A DNA stretch of 64,000 nt from a phage, in the NCBI GenBank assembly GCA_030980935.1, contig GCA_030980935.1_3059.1. One strand, written 5' to 3'. The notes under the pieces are model-generated. The model saw nothing but the letters and a program-made list of their open reading frames with translations. It made no database searches and was not told where the DNA came from. Positions 1,829-37,365 of this stretch are shown piece by piece; position 1 is the first letter of the stretch, and every line of letters begins with the position of its first letter. The translations under genes were made by a program, and so were the position numbers.

Positions 1829-2485
1829 ATGGCAGCACCTAGAATATCATTTTCGCCCTCTGATATTCTATTTGGTGTTCTAGATCGCTTGTTCAAAGAT
1901 AACGCTACCGGGAAAGTTCTTGCTTCCCGGGTAGCTGTCGTAATTCTTTTATTTATGATGGCGATTGTTTGGTATAGGGGAGATAGTTTCTTTGAGTACT
2001 ATAAGCAATCAAAGTATGAAACATACAGTGAAATTATTGAAAAGGAAAGAAATGCACGCTTTGAATCTGTCGCCCTGGAACAACTCCAGATAGTTCATAT
2101 ATCATCTGAGGCAGACTTTAGTGCGGTGTATTCTTTCCGCCCTAAAAACTTAAACTATTTTGTTGATATTATAGCATACGAAGGAAAATTACCTTCAACA
2201 ATAAGTGAAAAATCACTTGGAGGATATCCTGTTGATAAAACTATGGATGAATATGCAGTCCATTTAAATGGACGTCATTATTATTCCAACTCAAAATTTG
2301 CTTTTTTACCAACTAAAAAGCCTACTCCCGAAATAAACTACATGTACAGTTGTCCATATTTTAATTTGGACAATATCTATGCTGGAACGATAACCATGTA
2401 CTGGTATAGAAATGATCATATAAGTAATGACCGCCTTGAATCAATATGTGCTCAGGCGGCCAGAATATTAGGAAGGGCTAAATAA
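1829..2485 (+). CDS. t: Holin T
   Basis: 218 aa; N-terminus MAAPRISFSPSDILFGVLDRLFKDN and single TM segment match T4 holin; TATAAATA late promoter upstream. Confidence 0.9.
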   Translation: MAAPRISFSPSDILFGVLDRLFKDNATGKVLASRVAVVILLFMMAIVWYRGDSFFEYYKQSKYETYSEIIEKERNARFESVALEQLQIVHISSEADFSAVYSFRPKNLNYFVDIIAYEGKLPSTISEKSLGGYPVDKTMDEYAVHLNGRHYYSNSKFAFLPTKKPTPEINYMYSCPYFNLDNIYAGTITMYWYRNDHISNDRLESICAQAARILGRAK

Positions 2486-2758
2486 TTATTTGTTCGTATA
2501 CATCTCTAGATATCGATATACACCCTCAAAACCCTCGTTGAATTCGTCGATGAGGGTTTTCTTATCTTCTTGAGTTAATTCAGAAACAATTTTACGGAAT
2601 GAATTCTGATTTAACTTTCTACCTTCATGCGTTACTCCAATCTCATTCAGAAATGCAATAAAATTAGCACGATTCTCAACAATATCTTCTCTGGAAAATT
2701 TAATCAAAATAGACGCAACAGTAATAATTTCACGAACTGTATCAATGTTTTTATTCAT
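2486..2758 (-). CDS. asiA: Anti-sigma70 protein AsiA
   Basis: 90 aa, MNKNIDTVREIITVASILIKFSRED..., convergent with t as in T4. Confidence 0.9.
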   Translation of the reverse strand: MNKNIDTVREIITVASILIKFSREDIVENRANFIAFLNEIGVTHEGRKLNQNSFRKIVSELTQEDKKTLIDEFNEGFEGVYRYLEMYTNK

Positions 2759-2770
2759 TAACTATACCAC

Positions 2771-2923
2771 TCAATTAGTTGACTTTGTTATAATATCATC
2801 AGACGCTTGATTTGTAAACTGGTCTGTGGTATTTTCTTCAAAAATTTTTTCTACGAATTCCTTGAACGACTTACGTTCCTGAGCTACATTATGCTCGATT
2901 ACCTTTTCAAGATTATGACTCAT
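2771..2923 (-). CDS. Small ORF (asiA.1-like), 50 aa
   Basis: Hand-translated; ATG overlaps the arn stop (ATGA); below the 60 aa cutoff of the ORF track. Confidence 0.4.
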   Translation of the reverse strand: MSHNLEKVIEHNVAQERKSFKEFVEKIFEENTTDQFTNQASDDIITKSTN

Positions 2924-3198
2924 TCGAAATAATCTTCAATTTCGTAATCATGGACGTAAATCATTATAGTTTTTAATACATCATCAATACTTTTTCCTGG
3001 AGCTGGAATTACGTAAAAATATCCTGCTTTTGAGAGGTCTTTATAAGTTCCAACCAAGAAATCATTATTCTCGAGATGTAGTTCTTCAACTAATTCATTA
3101 ACAATTGAGTGGTATAAATTTGGTAGAAACTTATATAGCTTTTCTAGAATATCAATTTTGATTGTGTATTGAACCACGGACTGAGAATCAATAATCAT
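2920..3198 (-). CDS. arn: Arn-like anti-restriction protein (92 aa)
   Basis: 92 aa acidic ORF immediately upstream of asiA, matching size and position of T4 Arn. Confidence 0.6.
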   Translation of the reverse strand: MIIDSQSVVQYTIKIDILEKLYKFLPNLYHSIVNELVEELHLENNDFLVGTYKDLSKAGYFYVIPAPGKSIDDVLKTIMIYVHDYEIEDYFE

Positions 3199-3281
3199 AG
3201 ACCTTCCCCTTATGTTTCTGTTTGCGATTAGATTCTTTAAACGCTTTCTTCTTATCTTTATGAAGAGAAGCTTTATTAAAA

Positions 3282-3500
3282 TTATGTTTTGCGACTAAAT
3301 TGTTCATAGTGCTGAATTACCTCTCTTAAACATTTGCATGTGAATGAAAACTTTTTAGCTACACCACATTCAAATATATGTTCTCTTAAATCGCGTGTAT
3401 CGGTATATCCCATCTCAACAATAAAATGCCGTATTAGATTTTTATCTTTATCATTGAGAGAATTAAAATAATCAGATTTTGAATTAATTTCCCTGGCCAA
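3282..3500 (-). CDS. Hypothetical protein (72 aa)
   Basis: Track ORF in the arn-motA small-gene array. Confidence 0.45.
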   Translation of the reverse strand: MAREINSKSDYFNSLNDKDKNLIRHFIVEMGYTDTRDLREHIFECGVAKKFSFTCKCLREVIQHYEQFSRKT

Positions 3501-3780
3501 ATTGAATCACCTTCAGTTGACGTTTTAATTCTTTTATCATTTCTTCGTTCATCGCAATATAAAGATCGCGTAAAGCAGGTTTTAGCATTCCATTTACTGG
3601 AGAACTAAATGGACATACATAATCTTTTCCTACAAGCTTTTTGGTGAATTCCATATCGCAGAACTTAAATCCCGGCTCATTGGTATAAATTCCCCAATTA
3701 GTTGACATCATTTTATTAGCATATTCCAGTGCCTGGATTTGATTCATAATTCCATCAATTTGAAACTTTTTAATATTCAT
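3484..3780 (-). CDS. Hypothetical protein (98 aa)
   Basis: Track ORF, co-oriented, tightly packed. Confidence 0.5.
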   Translation of the reverse strand: MNIKKFQIDGIMNQIQALEYANKMMSTNWGIYTNEPGFKFCDMEFTKKLVGKDYVCPFSSPVNGMLKPALRDLYIAMNEEMIKELKRQLKVIQFGQGN

Positions 3781-4241
3781 TAGTAAAGGTCCTCAGAGTA
3801 AAGTTCTTTTTCACTACCACCACGTTCAATACGTACTTGTCCAGCGTAAGTTGCAATAATCATTGCTTCTTCACGTGTCCAATAATTACTGTATTGGTCA
3901 ATAAACCCTTGGTCATCATCACAAACTTGTTGAGTAACTAATTGAGGTTTAACTACATCTAAAACTTCTGCCATATCTTTAGAATAATGACGAGCACCTG
4001 GAATAACAAGAGTTCGTCCATCTTTTAATTTAAAACGGTTGGCTGCGCAAACAATTCGTCGTTGATACTTTTGATTTTCGTCCCAATATGCAGTCTGCCA
4101 ACAGAGTTCAGGAACTTCTTTCAGAATATCTTCTTCTGTGCATTTATAACCATGTGCTTTAAATTTTTCAACAAGACTTTCTGGAGTTTCACGAGATAAA
4201 GGAACATTCAGCATTTTTAAACGATTAATAAATGGGTTCAT
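3780..4241 (-). CDS. Hypothetical protein (153 aa)
   Basis: Track ORF; stop overlaps next start. Confidence 0.55.
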
Positions 4242-4567
4242 TTAAACCATCCTTTAATACGCTGCCACAAAGTTTTCTGTTGAGCTTTGTTAACACCAAT
4301 TGAGCGAATAACTGGTTGAGATTCCTGGAATTCTTTATAATCAGCAAGGTAAATTTCGTAAGCTGCATCCGTAAATGAACTTATCGCCGCCATAAAATTA
4401 TTGCGAATACCTGCTGGAGCATCTTTACTTTCACGAATAATCATGTATTTACCAGTCTTAATCTTTACGATAGTTCCAAGATAAGCTCCATGGTACCAGA
4501 TGTCCCACCCCTCTTGAGTGGGTTCTGCACAACGACGAAGTTCATTAACAATTTCTAACTTGTTCAT
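4238..4567 (-). CDS. Hypothetical protein (109 aa)
   Basis: Track ORF; 4-nt overlap with upstream gene. Confidence 0.55.
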
Positions 4568-4577
4568 TATTTATTCC

Positions 4578-5213
4578 TCACAGTTCAGATGCTACGGTGA
4601 TTACTGCTTCAATGTTTTCTTCCGAGCGTTTAATGTCAAGATACACATTACCGTTTTTAGCGATTTTACATGACATTCCGATATCAGTAAATTTCTGAAT
4701 ATGATGTTCCATCATTTTGTATCCAAAAATTCGCATATTTCCATTGTTGTTAATTTCAAAATTGCGAATTCCGTGAGTGCGTTTTTCTAAAATAGCGAGA
4801 TAGTTACTGCGATAAGTTTCAACCTTTTTAAGAACAAATCCATTTTCATCTAAAAGTTTTAACATGAGGTCTTTATCTTCTTCCATATCAGAAGTAATTT
4901 CGCGAGCTTTACGAGTTGCTCGTTTTTTCAGCAGTTCAGGAGCGTTTTCCTGTGCGTATAAAGTTGCTGCATTTGAAATAATATCCTGGGCTTCACCTGT
5001 AATGATTAATCCATCACCAGATTTCTCCACCAGGCCTTTTTTAATCAATACCCCAATATTACTATTAACTACTGCGTTACCTAAATCTGGATGCACCTCA
5101 CGAACTTCTGCAGCTGTAATGAAATCTTTCTTAGCAATAGTAATTAAAATCGCAGCAGTTTTTTCATTCAGAACATCGTTAGAAGCTTTGATGATGTAAG
5201 TTACTTTAGACAT
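4578..5213 (-). CDS. motA: Middle-transcription activator MotA
   Basis: 211 aa, MSKVTYIIKASNDVLNEKTAAILITIAKKDF...; early promoter cassette directly upstream. Confidence 0.9.
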   Translation of the reverse strand: MSKVTYIIKASNDVLNEKTAAILITIAKKDFITAAEVREVHPDLGNAVVNSNIGVLIKKGLVEKSGDGLIITGEAQDIISNAATLYAQENAPELLKKRATRKAREITSDMEEDKDLMLKLLDENGFVLKKVETYRSNYLAILEKRTHGIRNFEINNNGNMRIFGYKMMEHHIQKFTDIGMSCKIAKNGNVYLDIKRSEENIEAVITVASEL

Positions 5214-5247
5214 TTTCTAATCTCCGTAATTCTGTATCAGTAGTTGA

Positions 5248-5310
5248 TAGTTGTATAGTACCACAGTATGCTTTGGTTGTAAACCGTTTTGTGAAAAAAT
5301 TTTAAAATAA
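5248..5310 (-). promoter_or_regulatory. T4 early promoter cassette upstream of motA
   Basis: On minus strand: AT-rich UP element, GTTTAC -35 (5278-5283), TGgTAcTAT -10, conserved leader. Confidence 0.6.
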
Positions 5311-5334
5311 AAAGGGAGAGCCGAGGCTCTCCCT
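5311..5334 (-). terminator. GC-rich hairpin between gene 52 and the motA promoter
   Basis: GGGAGAGC cgag GCTCTCCC, 8-bp stem. Confidence 0.5.
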
Positions 5335-5484
5335 AAAATTACTGCATGACTGTGATAACTGTCATGATAACACGTTGAATTCCGAACGCAAGAAGACCTC
5401 CTGCTACGGCTGGAACGACACCTAAACCCGCCAGTAAAATGCTACCAGATACTAATGCAGCGCTTGTAATACCAATGAATGGAC

Positions 5485-6813
5485 TCATTTGATTTCCTCT
5501 AAATCTTTAGTGTATTCAGTAACTACATCAGTAGTTTTCCAATATTCGTTTTCTTCTTTTTTGGCTTTAGCTTCTTCAGCAAGTTTCTTCGCTTCATCGG
5601 AAGTCATATGAAAAATATTCATTCCAACTAATTTATCAACATAAGAAGAATACATATCGATTTTCGAAAGTTCTTCGGTCAGTTCTTTACGAGTTTTACC
5701 CTGTACAACAATTACACCTGAAATTACTTTCTTAATGAAATGTGCCTTGGCAAAGGCTAAACGAAAAGCTGATTCAGTTTCTTTAATTTTGTTATCAATT
5801 CGTTTTTGAACATAAGTTTTACGAACTTCAACAAAGTCTTTAATTAAATCAACTACGTTATCGTAAACTTGTAGTTTTCCTTTCTCATTAATAACCGTAA
5901 TATTCTGAGAACGACGCTCAATCAACCCGAAGTCTTTCATAATTTTTGCATGGCGTTCTTCTTCGTTATCGCTCAAAGAATATTCTTTACGGAATTTAAC
6001 TTTAAAGCCGAAGCCGTGCTCACCACAAGCATCATCCCATGTAATGAAGCCTTTATCTTCAAGTGGGTCTAAGATTTTACTCACATAAGTTTCACGATCA
6101 TACTTATACGGAATCTCAGTGATATGCATTTGAGTTCGTGAAGTAAACTTATATGTTCCACGAATTTCATATTGCCCATCAATTTCAACGACTTCACCAC
6201 GAAATTCTGGGAATTCTACCTTCGGTTTAGTTACTTTCTTTCCTTGAAGAGCTTGTAATACAGCTTTCTTAACAGAAGAAACGCTATGAGGAAGAATGTA
6301 AGTTGCATAACCAGTTGCAATACCGGAAACGCCATTAAGAAGAACAGTAGGAATAATAGGCAAATAGAAAGCAGGCGGAATGTGTTCTTTATCTTGATGT
6401 ACCGGAGCATACTCAGTATCTTTATATACGTTATAGAAATTTTTACTTACACGAGCAAAAATATAACGACTTGCCGCTGCTTTTTGAACGGTACGAGAAC
6501 CGAAGTTTCCTTGACCATCTAACAGAGGAAAGTTATTATTCCAAGTGTTAGCCATCAAAGCACCTGCGTCTTGTGCAGAGTTTTCACCATGATGATATCC
6601 AAGGTCAGCTACACCACCTGCAATAGAAGCAAGTTTGTGAAACTTATCTTTATTTCCTCGTGCCAAATCAAGAGCTCGAGCAATAACAAATCGTTGAACT
6701 GGCTTAAATCCATCAATCATATTTGGAATGGCACGATTTTCAACCGTGTACATAGCATAAGCCAATGCTTCATTATCAATGATACTTTTTAAATCGCGAT
6801 TATTCAGTTGCAT
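5485..6813 (-). CDS. 52: DNA topoisomerase II medium subunit gp52 (GyrA-like)
   Basis: 442 aa; GyrA-type N-terminus (FKPVQRFV); size and position as T4 gp52. Confidence 0.9.
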   Translation of the reverse strand: MQLNNRDLKSIIDNEALAYAMYTVENRAIPNMIDGFKPVQRFVIARALDLARGNKDKFHKLASIAGGVADLGYHHGENSAQDAGALMANTWNNNFPLLDGQGNFGSRTVQKAAASRYIFARVSKNFYNVYKDTEYAPVHQDKEHIPPAFYLPIIPTVLLNGVSGIATGYATYILPHSVSSVKKAVLQALQGKKVTKPKVEFPEFRGEVVEIDGQYEIRGTYKFTSRTQMHITEIPYKYDRETYVSKILDPLEDKGFITWDDACGEHGFGFKVKFRKEYSLSDNEEERHAKIMKDFGLIERRSQNITVINEKGKLQVYDNVVDLIKDFVEVRKTYVQKRIDNKIKETESAFRLAFAKAHFIKKVISGVIVVQGKTRKELTEELSKIDMYSSYVDKLVGMNIFHMTSDEAKKLAEEAKAKKEENEYWKTTDVVTEYTKDLEEIK

Positions 6814-6817
6814 AAAT

Positions 6818-6958
6818 TTACCATACTAGTGAATGTAGTGCCATAATAACATCAGAAATGAAAAGCACGACTTGAATTAATCCGAACATTACTCCATAAT
6901 ATAGTGCTACCAATAAAGTAGCAAGGGCTAGTGAATAGCCCAAGATTTTCTTAATCAT
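6818..6958 (-). CDS. Small hydrophobic peptide (46 aa), directly upstream of gene 52
   Basis: Hand-translated MIKKILGYSLALATLLVALYYGVMFGLIQVV...; single TM-like segment. Confidence 0.35.
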   Translation of the reverse strand: MIKKILGYSLALATLLVALYYGVMFGLIQVVLFISDVIMALHSLVW

Positions 6959-7109
6959 TAGTAGATAACAACACAAATGTTAAATATGCACACATACCCT
7001 GGGCTAAAGCTTGTGAAAACACACTGCTAGCATCGATACAGATAGTTAAAACACATGCTACTATCCAACAAATAAATGAAATAACTCCTAATAATTTTGC
7101 GATATTCAT
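6951..7109 (-). CDS. ac: Small membrane protein, likely ac (acriflavine sensitivity)
   Basis: 52 aa hydrophobic ORF between 52 and stp, where T4 ac lies; GAGGAAAA RBS. Confidence 0.55.
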   Translation of the reverse strand: MNIAKLLGVISFICWIVACVLTICIDASSVFSQALAQGMCAYLTFVLLSTND

Positions 7110-7116
7110 ATTTTCC

Positions 7117-7197
7117 TCACTGGCGTCCGAAGACGCCTTTAGTTTTAAGATTATTACGATAGAACTGCATCACGTGTTCGTTGTGGAAATTACTCAT
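7117..7197 (-). CDS. stp: Stp peptide (26 aa), activator of host PrrC anticodon nuclease
   Basis: Hand-translated [26 protein letters not shown], matching remembered T4 Stp; start overlaps ndd stop. Confidence 0.8.
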
Positions 7198-7655
7198 TAA
7201 TATGCCTGCAAAACGAATTTAAAGTTATCAGCCAACATACGGTTCATTTCTTCAAGTGTTTGATACTCAGAATGATGATTACGAGTAAACGCTAAAGCTA
7301 ACTGTCCTTTTCCAAATCCCGTCGTCAGAGGTTTCATCTTAGAAGCAGGCAGATAAAATACTGTGTATGGAACATTGTTATTTGCAATAGTACGTGCAAG
7401 CTGAGACCGACGTTGACGAATATGACTTAGAACTGCGCTGAATCCTTGCTTAGAACGCTGATTACCTACATAAAATCGTGCTGACACACATGGATTACTA
7501 AATGGACGACCATCTAATTTACTTACTAAAAAGTAAAATCCAGGTTTAGATAAAATATCTTTATGCGGAGTTCCCAAAAACCACTCACCACCCTTGATTG
7601 TACCAATAACAGTAGCGCCTGCGTTGTTCAGATCAGTAACAGTCATGTATTTCAT
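7197..7655 (-). CDS. ndd: Nucleoid disruption protein Ndd
   Basis: Track ORF 7197..7709 trimmed to the internal ATG with GAGGAAA RBS ([16 protein letters not shown]...), about 152 aa. Confidence 0.8.
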
Positions 7656-7713
7656 ATTAATTTCCTCTAAATTATTTTCTACTCCAAGGCCGCATGAATA
7701 CGCGGCCATTAAA

Positions 7714-7929
7714 TTAATCGTCGCAGTCGACGCTCAATTCCCAAAACTCTTCTACTGTATAAGTTTCAGTATCATTTTCAATACAGAAACGTTCATTACT
7801 ATTATTTGCTAAAGTAGCATTAACTGTCGGTTTCTCGCTAGTGCTCTTAAGAGGTGAAATACGAATTAACTGATCACCGTTATCTAAACAGAAAATTTCA
7901 CCAACTTTTACATCTTTAAAACTTTTCAT
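7714..7929 (-). CDS. Hypothetical protein (71 aa)
   Basis: Track ORF upstream of ndd. Confidence 0.5.
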
Positions 7930-8044
7930 AATTCACCTCAAGGAGTATAAAATCCAAATGCAGTTGTTGACCATCCCATCCAATATGGGAAATTTGCACC
8001 AATGTAAAACATGAGAATATAAAACCAAATGTTTAGTAAATTCA

Positions 8045-8263
8045 TCATTTTACACCATTCCAAATTGTTTCAACTACGGATTTTAAACCATTTTGATGAA
8101 TATCCATTCCGACTACCGCCATCAAATAGATTCCAACTACAACTGAACCTAAGGCAAAAATCAGCATAAAAATGAATAAAGCCGGAAAAATATTATCGAA
8201 AAACCATTCAATAAATGTAAAAGCACTGCGTTTACGCTTCATATTTTCCTCACATAAATCCAA
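8045..8263 (-). CDS. Small membrane protein (72 aa)
   Basis: Track ORF with hydrophobic segment FPALFIFMLIFALGSVVVGIYLMAVVG. Confidence 0.5.
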   Translation of the reverse strand: MDLCEENMKRKRSAFTFIEWFFDNIFPALFIFMLIFALGSVVVGIYLMAVVGMDIHQNGLKSVVETIWNGVK

Positions 8264-8362
8264 AGTAAACGTTTAATACATCAATCATTAAAACGATTGG
8301 GAATATACTCAAAACTACTAGTATTATAACTACATTCCATATAGCTTTAACAATCTTTTTCA
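8250..8362 (-). CDS. Small membrane peptide (37 aa)
   Basis: Track ORF 8250..8498 trimmed: its N-terminal extension runs through an early promoter cassette; real start is the ATG after GGAGGAACAGAAA. Confidence 0.35.
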
Positions 8363-8384
8363 TTTTCTGTTCCTCCGTAGTTGA

Positions 8385-8445
8385 TAGGGTAATAGTACCA
8401 CGGAAGAACAGTCTTGTAAACAACTTTTTTAAAAATATTCGTAAT
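8385..8445 (-). promoter_or_regulatory. T4 early promoter cassette
   Basis: GTTTAC (8415-8420) and conserved -10/leader block. Confidence 0.5.
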
Positions 8446-8606
8446 AAATGTGAATACCAACTACTACCGCTGAAACCTGTGCAACCCACCACGCGCAAGC
8501 AATAAGTACAGAATTCAAAATTTTCATAATAACCTCATTACAAAAGTAAATGTTAAACAAATTAATGGAATACTAATTAACCAAACGAAACACCACCATA
8601 GTGAAC

Positions 8607-8879
8607 TCATAACTCAATCTCAGCGATTTTCATTTCATTACTATTAATAGCCGCTTTAAGACTATCTGAAAGAATTACATCCCAGTGGTCATTCATATGA
8701 CCATTAATTAAGCGTGTAATTTCTTCGGGAGTTGAAAAATAAGGCGTATCAGACTCCCAATGCGATAATCCTAAGCGAGTATAAATCATACCTTCATCAT
8801 CGCTAGAATATTCAACTGACACAAACTCATCAGTTATTTTATGTTTAGCGTAATAAAATTTAAATTTCATTTTACTCAA
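8607..8879 (-). CDS. Hypothetical protein (90 aa)
   Basis: Track ORF. Confidence 0.5.
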   Translation of the reverse strand: MSKMKFKFYYAKHKITDEFVSVEYSSDDEGMIYTRLGLSHWESDTPYFSTPEEITRLINGHMNDHWDVILSDSLKAAINSNEMKIAEIEL

Positions 8880-9094
8880 TAATCCGCTAAAAGATCGACG
8901 ATTGCATCACGAAGACACTTATTCGCAATACGTTTAAGGGCAATTTCAGTTTCTGGAGCATTTTGAATAATCATCGAATTCAACTCAGCCTCAGCAAACT
9001 GAAGTTCTTTAACTAGTTCAGCTTTATATTTCCCTTGCCCTTTCTTAGCCTTTGTCCGTTTTAATTCAGCTGTAGTAAACATTTTATTCTCCAA
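8876..9094 (-). CDS. Hypothetical protein (72 aa)
   Basis: Track ORF directly downstream of an early promoter cassette. Confidence 0.5.
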   Translation of the reverse strand: MENKMFTTAELKRTKAKKGQGKYKAELVKELQFAEAELNSMIIQNAPETEIALKRIANKCLRDAIVDLLADY

Positions 9095-9109
9095 ATCCGT
9101 ATTAGTTGA

Positions 9110-9175
9110 TAGTTGTATAGTACCACAGTCCTTGTGGTATGTAAACTGTTTTATGAAATTTTTTTAAATAGAAAG
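9110..9175 (-). promoter_or_regulatory. T4 early promoter cassette
   Basis: GTTTAC (9141-9146), conserved gtggtactatacaactatcaac block, AT-rich UP. Confidence 0.55.
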
Positions 9176-9721
9176 ATACCATCCATTGTAGTTGCTTTTT
9201 CTTACAACCTTACGAAGGTCTTCTCTGTCACCGATGAACTTCGGAGTGTACTGGATGACACCTGGGTGAATTTCTTTAGTGTTGAATATAATTATACAGT
9301 CAGCGACCTGATGATTCAGAATGGGCCCTAGATTTATTCCAGAACCATATGGATACTCTCCGCTGCATCCTGTTGTTACCGAAATCCAACGTGAGTCAGT
9401 TTGATGTGTCTTAACTTCTACACGAAGCCCACAGTATTTTGGATGCGCCAATACATCCCATGCGTATGTATACGGGTCATTAACATCCTCTTGGCCTTTA
9501 TTAACATACCCGCTTAGCCAATCTGCTACAAAAAACTCTGCGTACACAGCGATACGGCATCTTTCGATAACTTCTGCCTTATCCTGGTTCGGATTTTGTT
9601 TTAAAGAGTATCTTGCTGTATCAGCAATTTTGACCTTCATTTCACTAGTCAAGTCACTGTTCGATAGAGTAAATGTCGGAATCTGAAATAGTCTCTGTAA
9701 ACCCGGATTCGTTTTCTGCAT
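9164..9721 (-). CDS. denB: Endonuclease IV DenB-like
   Basis: 185 aa ORF between ndd block and rIIB, matching T4 denB in size and position. Confidence 0.65.
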   Translation of the reverse strand: MQKTNPGLQRLFQIPTFTLSNSDLTSEMKVKIADTARYSLKQNPNQDKAEVIERCRIAVYAEFFVADWLSGYVNKGQEDVNDPYTYAWDVLAHPKYCGLRVEVKTHQTDSRWISVTTGCSGEYPYGSGINLGPILNHQVADCIIIFNTKEIHPGVIQYTPKFIGDREDLRKVVRKSNYNGWYLSI

Positions 9722-9784
9722 TAAACTTTCCTTTTACGTCGGAATCACTGATATTCATATAAATCATAATTTCTCTTAAAACAA

Positions 9785-9800
9785 AAGGGCCGAAGCCCCT
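9785..9800 (-). terminator. UUCG-tetraloop hairpin
   Basis: GGGC cgaa GCCC (UUCG on minus-strand transcript). Confidence 0.5.
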
Positions 9801-9804
9801 TATT

Positions 9805-9999
9805 TTATTTGAATTGTGCAATTCTTTTCTCTAAACATTCAGCATAAGATTTCATTGAGATAAACTGCGAAAGTAGCAGTTCTTGCTCAACTGCACTAAC
9901 TGTTAGAAACTTTGCGCTTTCTAAAAATTTGCTCAGTGCATTAATTTTGAGCATTAATTGATCGTATTCTTCTTTTACTCGTGCTTGATAACCTAACAT
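9805..9999 (-). CDS. Hypothetical protein (64 aa)
   Basis: Track ORF flanked by two tetraloop hairpins. Confidence 0.45.
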   Translation of the reverse strand: MLGYQARVKEEYDQLMLKINALSKFLESAKFLTVSAVEQELLLSQFISMKSYAECLEKRIAQFK

Positions 10000-10017
10000 A
10001 ATTTTCCTTAATATGAT

Positions 10018-10033
10018 AAGGGCCGAAGCCCTT
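10018..10033 (-). terminator. UUCG-tetraloop hairpin at rIIB 3' end
   Basis: GGGC cgaa GCCC overlapping the rIIB stop codon. Confidence 0.5.
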
Positions 10034-10970
10034 ATTTAAATTGTTCAGTAACGTCTTCAACTACTTCGTATTGGCAGGTACGCATTTTAGCATCGTTGTA
10101 ATCAATCGGAATTGATACTACATCACGTGGATGTACTTTAACTTTTACAACTCGGCTGGTTGAACTGCCAAAGTGACGAATATAAGATTTAGAACACACA
10201 TGCAGACCACGAGAACAAGTTTGTGTATCATCGTCATTCACACGAGTACGCGGCATTTTAACTACTTTACCAGGACTGTTATCAAAGGTGTTTGAGTGAC
10301 AGTCAAAGTAGTTGTCACGAACTACTTTCCAAGCATAGAAGTAACCATCTTCTGTAATTTCAATATCGTTTGCTACCAAGAAATCAAAGAGTCGAGATAC
10401 CGCTTTCTGGCTTGGGTTTTCCAGCAGATTTTCCAAGAACGGAAAATAAAATTCAAAGTTTTCACCTTTTTCCATCGAATCGAGAATACGATCAACTAAA
10501 CCAGACCGTAATTCGATATTTTGATAGAACAAGCTTCCGCCTTCAATTCGAACATCGCCGGAAATATATTTTTCAACAGCGCGACGAACATTAATTTTTT
10601 GCGCAGCTTCTTCCAGCTTATCCGCTACAAGCAGATTAAGAATTTCCTGGAAGTTTGAATGAGTATTAGGAGTTGCGTTATAAGTTACACCGTCAACAGT
10701 AATTGAAATGAATTTTTTAGATGCATTCCAAATAATGTCAGATTTAGCAACTGGAGCAATAACTGCATCGCTATTAACTTTAACTGTAATATCACCGCTA
10801 ATAGTAACTTTAGGGCGTTTAGCTTCTTCAGCATTTTTCAAAACACGACGGATTGTGTCAACCGATACATCCTTCCAATAAGCTAATTCCTGCTGAGTGT
10901 AATTACCACTTGAATACAGTTTAACAATTTCAGCTTGTTCGTTTTTGGTCAGGCATTTAATATTGTACAT
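10032..10970 (-). CDS. rIIB: rIIB protein
   Basis: 312 aa, immediately downstream of rIIA. Confidence 0.9.
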   Translation of the reverse strand: MYNIKCLTKNEQAEIVKLYSSGNYTQQELAYWKDVSVDTIRRVLKNAEEAKRPKVTISGDITVKVNSDAVIAPVAKSDIIWNASKKFISITVDGVTYNATPNTHSNFQEILNLLVADKLEEAAQKINVRRAVEKYISGDVRIEGGSLFYQNIELRSGLVDRILDSMEKGENFEFYFPFLENLLENPSQKAVSRLFDFLVANDIEITEDGYFYAWKVVRDNYFDCHSNTFDNSPGKVVKMPRTRVNDDDTQTCSRGLHVCSKSYIRHFGSSTSRVVKVKVHPRDVVSIPIDYNDAKMRTCQYEVVEDVTEQFK

Positions 10971-37299: not shown

Positions 37300-37365
37300 A
37301 GTTGTATAGTACCATGGAAGAACAGTCTTGTAAACAGTTTTGTGAAAATTTTTTAGGGAATTCTA
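37300..37365 (-). promoter_or_regulatory. T4 early promoter cassette
   Basis: GTTTAC (37330-37335), conserved leader identical to the 9110 copy. Confidence 0.55.

Follow-up and report, generated by a model that had tools for sequence, protein, structure and literature searches.

Evidence for eight hydrophobic micro-protein genes in the asiA–rIIB early region of a T4-like coliphage

Several products of the phage T4 genes lying from asiA towards rIIB are well characterised. AsiA and MotA redirect RNA polymerase and thereby take over transcription, Arn is a DNA mimic that blocks McrBC, Ndd disrupts the nucleoid, DenB nicks cytosine-containing (dC) DNA, gp52 is a subunit of the replication topoisomerase, Stp blocks EcoprrI and thereby triggers PrrC where the host strain carries it, and Ac, the product of a classical acridine-sensitivity gene, raises acridine uptake. 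In the T4 genome (NC_000866) the segment from asiA.1 to denB.1 occupies positions 161,163-167,937 and includes the classical 'D region', a non-essential block between genes 52 and rIIB. A deletion in this region, saΔ9, removes about 3.4 kb carrying 52.1, ac, stp, ndd, ndd.1-ndd.6 and denB; the phage remains viable with a yield of about 50% of wild type, and the stimulation of phospholipid synthesis that follows infection is abolished (Kutter et al. 2018, PMC6071114). Several products of the deleted genes are thought to be membrane proteins, and 52.1, ac and ndd.1-ndd.6 have been pointed to as candidates for the phospholipid effect (PMC6071114). Here we analysed the corresponding interval, positions 2771-9999, of a 64,000-nucleotide (nt) stretch of phage DNA (contig GCA_030980935.1_3059.1; hereafter the window), for which an earlier reading of the letters alone (the original prediction) had proposed host-shutoff and anti-defence genes together with very small hydrophobic peptides. 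All coordinates refer to the window and to its minus strand unless stated otherwise.

We are highly confident that the interval is the orthologue of the T4 asiA–rIIB early region in a T4-like coliphage (Tequatrovirus), and that it contains eight real micro-protein genes for which we infer a role at the membrane. A megablast search of GenBank phages with window positions 2400-10100 matched 951 records; 452 of these span at least 80% of the query, nearly all at 95-99% identity, and all are Tequatrovirus (T4-like) genomes. The interval itself shares 96-97% DNA identity with many sequenced relatives, and it is matched best, at 97.4% across its full length, by Escherichia phages slur02 and slur04. 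When the proteins of the T4 reference annotation were searched against the window, every one of the 26 from gp38 to RIIB gave a single strong match (92-100% amino acid (aa) identity), and the T4 order and orientation were kept for all 26. The interval is bounded by the asiA.1 stop and the denB.1 start, and is therefore the DNA between asiA and rIIB, as had been predicted; the T4 gene order is matched throughout.

All coding within the interval is on the minus strand, where about 25 genes are tightly packed. Genes within a unit are joined by ATGA or TAATG overlaps or by spacers of 4-12 nt. The linkage of small open reading frames (ORFs) by ATGA-type overlaps, claimed in the original prediction, was borne out at six junctions (arn/asiA.1, arn.4/arn.3, 52/motA.1, ndd.2a/ndd.2, ndd.6/ndd.5, and that between ndd.6 and an 87-aa ORF, here orfA); two further junctions are TAATG overlaps (arn.3/arn.2 and ndd/stp), and ac overlaps 52.1 by 8 nt. 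Most of the small hydrophobic genes are linked to a neighbour in this way or across a gap of 4-8 nt. Every ORF of the interval has a Pfam or PHROG family match, with PHROG expectation values (E) from 1e-17 to 1e-98.

The eight hydrophobic micro-proteins, of 28-65 aa, are the products of motA.1, 52.1, ac, ndd.2, ndd.2a, ndd.4, ndd.5 and ndd.6; the 'at least six' tiny hydrophobic peptides announced previously, an ac-like one included, were thus an undercount. Their grand average of hydropathy (GRAVY) ranges from 0.68 to 1.86, and each contains a hydrophobic stretch of at least 15 residues. The highest 19-residue Kyte-Doolittle mean is 2.2-3.1 in seven of them, with ndd.2 borderline at 1.29. By all-against-all BLASTP, none of the eight peptides is a paralogue of another, and the window contains no additional copies of them.

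For each gene, the pairwise ratio of non-synonymous to synonymous substitution rates (dN/dS, omega) was calculated in all three frames of the gene strand across 20 related loci. The Gly/Ala-rich motA.1 product (49 aa; 5339-5488; phrog_3487) is identical to that of T4, has a GRAVY of 1.60 and an omega of 0.08, and its gene begins in an ATGA overlap with the gene 52 stop. The 52.1 product (46 aa; 6818-6958; omega 0.15) belongs to PF24129 (DUF7396; E 3.5e-23) and was found in 813 phage records, Klebsiella and Enterobacter phages among them. Ac, the acridine-sensitivity membrane protein (52 aa; 6951-7109; phrog_2501; omega 0.03), shares 96% identity over 51 aa with T4 Ac and occupies the same place, between stp and 52.1. 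The ndd.2 product (36 aa; 7938-8048; phrog_4135; omega 0.15) is rich in aromatic residues and 92% identical to that of T4. The intact ndd.2a gene (8045-8242) encodes a predicted membrane protein of 65 aa (PF23906, DUF7248; E 4e-20), in which a Lys/Arg-rich N-terminus (MKRKRS) precedes a hydrophobic core. The three remaining peptides are those of ndd.4 (37 aa; 8250-8363; phrog_3098; omega 0.33), preceded by a GGAGGAA Shine-Dalgarno sequence; ndd.5 (32 aa; 8429-8527; phrog_5011; omega 0.09), 100% identical to T4; and ndd.6 (28 aa; 8524-8610; phrog_8851; omega 0.10), 96% identical. Ac and ndd.2a are essentially limited to Tequatrovirus. In the families checked (52.1, ac and ndd.2a), sequence conservation of 95-100% was seen in most records. 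A ninth peptide, T4 ndd.3, was considered and rejected: its frame opens with TGA in the window, and the T4 form arises from a 1-nt deletion.

The pattern of substitution indicates that these frames are constrained as coding sequence. The 20 loci comprised T4, T2, RB9, RB14, slur02, slur03, G50, OES_C-1, YUEEL01, EPIMAM01, F2, three Dhakavirus phages, one Gaprivervirus phage and five IMG/VR contigs; a scan of IMG/VR with Ndd had yielded only those five loci, all very close, which added little divergence. Omega in the annotated frame was 0.03-0.38 for every gene, compared with about 0.3 to 14 (mostly 0.5-14) in the other two frames, and the annotated frame gave the lowest value for all genes except asiA.1. 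Most variable sites fell at third codon positions, as in motA.1 (3, 1 and 13 sites at the first, second and third positions), 52.1 (11, 5 and 25), ac (0, 1 and 6), the C-terminal part of ndd.2a (4, 1 and 16) and ndd.5 (2, 1 and 12). In Dhakavirus phages 52.1 is 89-96% identical, compared with about 82% for the adjoining gp52 and about 62% for Ndd, and it differs there by 3-6 non-synonymous against 12-15 synonymous changes. Judged from these sequence comparisons, the small ORFs are real coding genes under purifying selection, and the eight micro-proteins are mutually unrelated.

The arrangement of signals around the genes was also conserved with that of T4. The T4 early-promoter pattern (-35 GTTTAC(A/T), extended -10 TGTGGTA(C/T)(T/A)AT) has three exact matches in the interval, of the form GTTTACA…TGTGGTACTAT, located upstream of motA (5255-5283), ndd.4 (8392-8420) and a 68-aa ORF (9117-9145). 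Across the 64 kb there are 11 matches, 11/11 of them on the minus strand. The ndd.4 promoter is nearly repeated at 37306-37334 on the minus strand, some 29 kb away, with one mismatch in 29 positions. Upstream of asiA, inside asiA.1, there is a related sigma-70 promoter-like site (TTTACA-17-TATTAT with TG; 2790-2818). No middle promoter was picked up within the interval by a strict MotA-box pattern. Terminator-like hairpins number 16, an enrichment over the 4.0 ± 2.0 expected, and where the gap between two genes exceeds 30 nt it contains a T4 early-promoter consensus or else a stable hairpin. Stable hairpins follow motA.1, ndd.1, denB.1 and rIIB. That after motA.1 (5313-5334) is an intrinsic terminator whose 9-bp stem (-18.1 kcal/mol) leads into a T run, the one between ndd.1 and ndd (7688-7707) is GC-rich with 8 bp and without a T run, and the hairpin scan placed a C(UUCG)G terminator hairpin after denB.1 (9784-9801). 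A C(UUCG)G hairpin is likewise found after rIIB (10020-10031).

A good Shine-Dalgarno sequence is present ahead of motA.1, ac, ndd, ndd.1, ndd.2a, ndd.4, ndd.5 and the 68-aa ORF. Neither 52.1 nor stp has one; their start codons fall inside the preceding gene or at its stop, an arrangement suggestive of translational coupling. Given the overlaps and short spacers, coupled translation of the small downstream cistrons is likely. In a time-resolved transcriptome and proteome of T4, the RNAs of the region's genes were classed as early, except that DenB and DenB.1 were middle for RNA and protein alike (PMC9697503 Table S2). The same data set detected AsiA, Arn, Arn.2-4, MotA, Ndd and Ndd.1 as early proteins, and assigned Arn.1, gp52 and RIIB to the middle class as proteins although their RNAs were early (PMC9697503 Table S2).

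The genes thus form a few units, each running from a T4-type early promoter, of the kind read by the sigma-70 RNA polymerase of the host, to a stable hairpin. Taken together, these features point to a model in which the eight micro-proteins would be translated partly through coupling. The most likely course is that the peptides would then insert into the inner membrane during the first minutes of infection, where they may adjust envelope permeability and lipid synthesis while being dispensable on laboratory hosts. That such hydrophobic peptides act on the host membrane is a reasonable suggestion, one already made in the literature (Kutter et al. 2018). The N-terminal region of Ac has Lys5 followed by a hydrophobic core and a lipobox-like IVAC with Cys19 (VISFICWIVAC), and fits a regular-expression version of the PROSITE PS51257-type rule (a Lys or Arg among residues 1-7, a hydrophobic segment free of charged residues, then [LIVMFYSTAGCQ]-[AGS]-C with the Cys at positions 15-35), so Ac might be lipid-anchored. 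As a tentative extension, one or a few of the 52.1, ndd.2, ndd.2a, ndd.4, ndd.5 and ndd.6 products, perhaps with Ac as a lipid-anchored partner, could be the factor that stimulates phosphatidylglycerol synthesis and changes envelope permeability. If this is true, T4-like phages possess a dedicated set of peptides of at most 65 residues that remodels the host membrane early in infection. The comparison itself narrows the candidates for the unexplained saΔ9 phospholipid phenotype to a handful of conserved peptides.

A number of observations weigh against this model. The selection signal is thin in places: the asiA.1 omega of 0.38 derives from 10 variable sites and one alternative frame gives a lower value; it is thin too in ndd.6, with its 6 variable sites, and over the opening 25 codons of ndd.2a. 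A generic sigma-70 scan performed no better than shuffled sequence, finding 36 sites with 34.4 expected; it is only the T4-specific promoter consensus that stands out. The saΔ9 phenotype could stem from the loss of ndd, denB or stp, and to our knowledge ac is the only single micro-gene with an experimentally assigned membrane phenotype. Moreover, motA.1, 52.1, ac, stp and ndd.2-ndd.6 carry the protein class 'NA', meaning undetected, in the T4 proteome (PMC9697503 Table S2), and translation of the peptides and of Stp is therefore deduced from conservation only. No relevant ribosome-profiling work on small T4 proteins turned up in a literature search, and full-text searches on the micro-gene names (ndd.2a, ndd.4, motA.1, denB.1 and others) returned at most one genome paper.

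The lack of any mass-spectrometric detection of a sub-60-aa peptide in T4 raises the question of whether ORFs of this size are annotation artefacts, that is, chance frames in an AT-rich spacer whose T-rich codons merely look hydrophobic and whose DNA is really regulatory. Promoters and hairpins do occur in the stretch, the T4 'gene' ndd.3 is truly an artefact of a 1-nt deletion, and the start codons that the T4 annotation gives to ndd.4 and arn.4 are not conserved. Chance frames would nevertheless not be expected to show annotated-frame omega values of 0.03-0.33 with a third-position excess and generally higher values in the other frames, nor the mostly synonymous changes by which 52.1 has diverged in Dhakavirus. 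Full-length PHROG and Pfam family matches, and good Shine-Dalgarno sequences before motA.1, ac, ndd.2a, ndd.4 and ndd.5, argue in the same direction. Small hydrophobic peptides with few Lys/Arg (1-3 in these cases) would be poor targets for tryptic proteomics, such that non-detection is to be expected and does not refute translation. We therefore consider an artefactual origin of these ORFs highly improbable.

If the micro-proteins are real, they may still serve the phage rather than alter the host. T4 uses small membrane proteins for exclusion and lysis inhibition, and by analogy with Imm, Sp, RI and RIII the micro-proteins could act in superinfection exclusion, in lysis timing, or in anchoring replication or assembly complexes to the membrane. 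It is consistent with such a phage-side role that they are early genes on the same strand as, and adjoining, rIIA/rIIB, and that they are dispensable in single infections of laboratory strains. They show no sequence relation, however, to Imm, Sp, RI or any named family, and the only phenotypes reported for the region (acridine uptake and phospholipid synthesis) concern the host envelope. We regard this possibility as somewhat unlikely. Less probable again is that the peptides counteract membrane-associated abortive-infection systems of natural hosts, as rIIA/rIIB do RexAB, and are therefore silent in laboratory strains. Here the setting is suggestive, with the anti-restriction genes arn and stp in the same cluster and rII adjoining, and gene content varies among close relatives in the manner typical of arms-race accessory genes (orfA and a second ORF, orfB, are not in T4; ac and ndd.2a are Tequatrovirus-restricted). 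The sequences themselves are not diversifying but highly conserved, at 95-100% in most records, and there is no direct evidence for such a role. These genes go unmentioned in the main open-access text of either T4 study, HIDEN-SEQ or CRISPRi-ART. Neither alternative is exclusive of the main model.

Around the micro-genes lie the characterised early genes, most of which had been correctly recognised in the original prediction. AsiA, the anti-sigma-70 factor (90 aa; 2486-2758), is identical to T4 AsiA at 90/90 residues and matches PF09010 over its full length (E 1e-42; 144.6 bits, curated cut-off 25); it had been listed among the genes of the interval, and is real but lies just outside its start at 2771. 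The predicted Arn-like protein, MotA and Ndd all gave Pfam matches far above the cut-offs and have T4 orthologues at the same positions. Arn (92 aa; 2920-3198) is 96.7% identical to T4 Arn (PF22134, E 1e-53; 180.1 bits, cut-off 26), and by orthology probably acts as a DNA-mimic inhibitor of McrBC. The middle-transcription activator MotA (211 aa; 4578-5213; 97.6% identity) carries both domains, PF09114 (N-terminal activation; 203.4 bits) and PF09158 (C-terminal DNA-binding; 221 bits). The nucleoid disruption protein Ndd (152 aa; 7197-7655; 98% identity) matches PF06591 over its full length (E 1e-95; 317.8 bits over 1-152). A 170-aa extended form of the ndd ORF was rejected, as the extension holds the hairpin downstream of ndd.1 and GAGGAAA precedes the T4 start. 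The DenB-like nuclease is endonuclease IV (185 aa; 9164-9721), with 98.9% identity to T4 DenB over 185 aa and a match to phrog_1360 (E 1e-97); on these two the orthology rests, since sequence searches found neither a Pfam model match nor a PDB relative for DenB. The same searches by sequence found no PDB relative for Ndd or Arn.3.

The 26-aa peptide Stp (7117-7197) has been described as the phage product that inhibits EcoprrI, a restriction enzyme of type Ic, and in doing so activates the latent PrrC anticodon nuclease (PMC1484252). The window copy is identical to T4 Stp at 26/26 residues and matches PF08133 end to end (1-26/26; E 2e-21; 75.3 bits). Its gene lies directly downstream of ndd, and, as predicted, its start overlaps the ndd stop: the ATG of stp and the TAA of ndd share a single base (A) in TAATG (…TATTAATGAGT…). 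Stp is 96-100% identical in Dhakavirus phages, while the neighbouring Ndd is only about 62% identical, and homologues with 79-92% identity occur in unrelated siphoviruses, including Kagunavirus Ro145clw; in Rtp the homologue is rtp6, which has a polynucleotide kinase/phosphatase gene two genes upstream of it. Such a distribution points to strong constraint on Stp or to horizontal spread, if not to the two combined. A perfect 6-bp C(UUCG)G hairpin (7122-7137; -10.0 kcal/mol) is contained in the final codons of stp, immediately upstream of the ac Shine-Dalgarno sequence.

The host-shutoff and anti-defence label given to the stretch fits AsiA, MotA, Ndd, DenB, Arn and Stp, but not gene 52, which encodes the DNA topoisomerase II medium subunit (442 aa; 5485-6813; 99.5% identity to T4 gp52; omega 0.05) and fills 18% of the interval. 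This largest gene was left out of the original prediction, as were asiA.1, a 39-aa ORF, arn.1-arn.4, ndd.1, denB.1 and the two ORFs absent from T4. The asiA.1 product (50 aa; 2771-2923; phrog_3762) is acidic, hydrophilic and 96% identical to T4 AsiA.1. The 39-aa ORF (3188-3307; PF23876, DUF7230, E 2e-10; phrog_1359) is very basic, with 12 Lys/Arg, and overlaps arn by 11 nt and arn.1 by 26 nt. Its omega is 0.17, compared with 2.25 and 1.61 in the other frames; it is annotated in slur02 and RB9, and is 97% conserved in T4 yet unannotated in the T4 reference. The arn.1 gene (3282-3500) starts either at a TTG after AAGGTGA, giving 72 aa, or at the ATG annotated in T4 (3413), giving 43 aa; phrog_4452 spans all 72 aa, and the N-terminal extension has an omega of 0.19. 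At higher coordinates lie arn.2 (98 aa; 3484-3780; 99% identity to T4; phrog_1844), arn.3 (153 aa; 3780-4241; 97%; phrog_839) and a full-length arn.4 (109 aa; 4238-4567), which matches phrog_1594 over its full length and has an omega of 0.11 in its N-terminal part.

Beyond ndd, the hydrophilic ndd.1 product (71 aa; 7714-7929; phrog_2183) is 97% identical to T4. The 87-aa orfA (8607-8870; phrog_2390, E 7e-46) is of the RB14ncORF269c/RB69ORF270c type and annotated in RB14, and the 68-aa orfB (8876-9082; phrog_4535) is of the RB32ORF266c type and annotated in RB14 and RB9; neither has a match among T4 proteins. The helical denB.1 product (64 aa; 9805-9999; 98% identity to T4) matches PF21825 (crAss001_48-related; E 4e-19). 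On the other side, before the interval, late genes occupy 108-2485 on the plus strand: the C-terminal part of tail fibre gene 37, gene 38 (183 aa; 99.5% identity to T4 gp38) and t, which encodes the holin. The direction of transcription switches at the t/asiA junction (2485/2486), and the interval begins just inside it. An Rfam search found no RNA family across the whole 64-kb window.

The region, its genes and the suggested membrane role are all already known from T4 annotation and literature, and in this sense the locus is an ordinary finding; what the comparison adds is to show which micro-ORFs are well supported. Window and T4 have in common the gene order, the strand, the layout of early promoters and hairpins, and the stp/ndd TAATG overlap. 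They differ in two additional ORFs (87 and 68 aa) of the window, which lie between ndd.6 and denB and are served by an early promoter of their own. Both ORFs are present in RB14, slur02 and G50, while RB9 has the 68-aa ORF only. Like the window, slur02/slur04 and RB14 combine the two non-T4 ORFs with a 65-aa ndd.2a, a 109-aa arn.4 and the 39-aa basic ORF. An extra 330-nt ORF (RB32ORF268c) between denB and denB.1 in slur02 and RB14 is absent from the window and T4, and RB14 has a further 156-nt ORF between arn.3 and arn.4.

Three further differences correct quirks of the T4 reference annotation that are spreading into other genomes. T4 ndd.2a has a 1-nt deletion five bases past the ATG, reading ATGAA-CGT where the window, RB14, RB9 and slur03 read ATGAAGCGT, and T4 is therefore annotated with an 'ndd.3' of 26 aa and a truncated 'ndd.2a' of 40 aa; alignment identified these (8933-9129 of the T4 locus, L001) as two halves of one 65-aa gene. 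The arn.4 product has 109 aa in the window and most relatives, whereas at the T4 locus (L001 5128-5460) the start codon is ATA, so that T4 annotates only the C-terminal 68 aa. Finally, the T4 start ATG of ndd.4 reads ACG in the window, RB14, RB9 and slur03; the GGAGGAA serves the second ATG, and ndd.4 in the window therefore encodes 37 aa.

In the profile searches (PHROG, Pfam) the eight peptides matched DUF or unknown-function PHROG families, with ac as the sole one having a phenotype. Although sequence similarity to T4 Imm, Sp, RI, RIII and holin T was not found, these proteins are also short, have one or two transmembrane segments, and act at the inner membrane, where the eight micro-proteins of this locus are predicted to reside.

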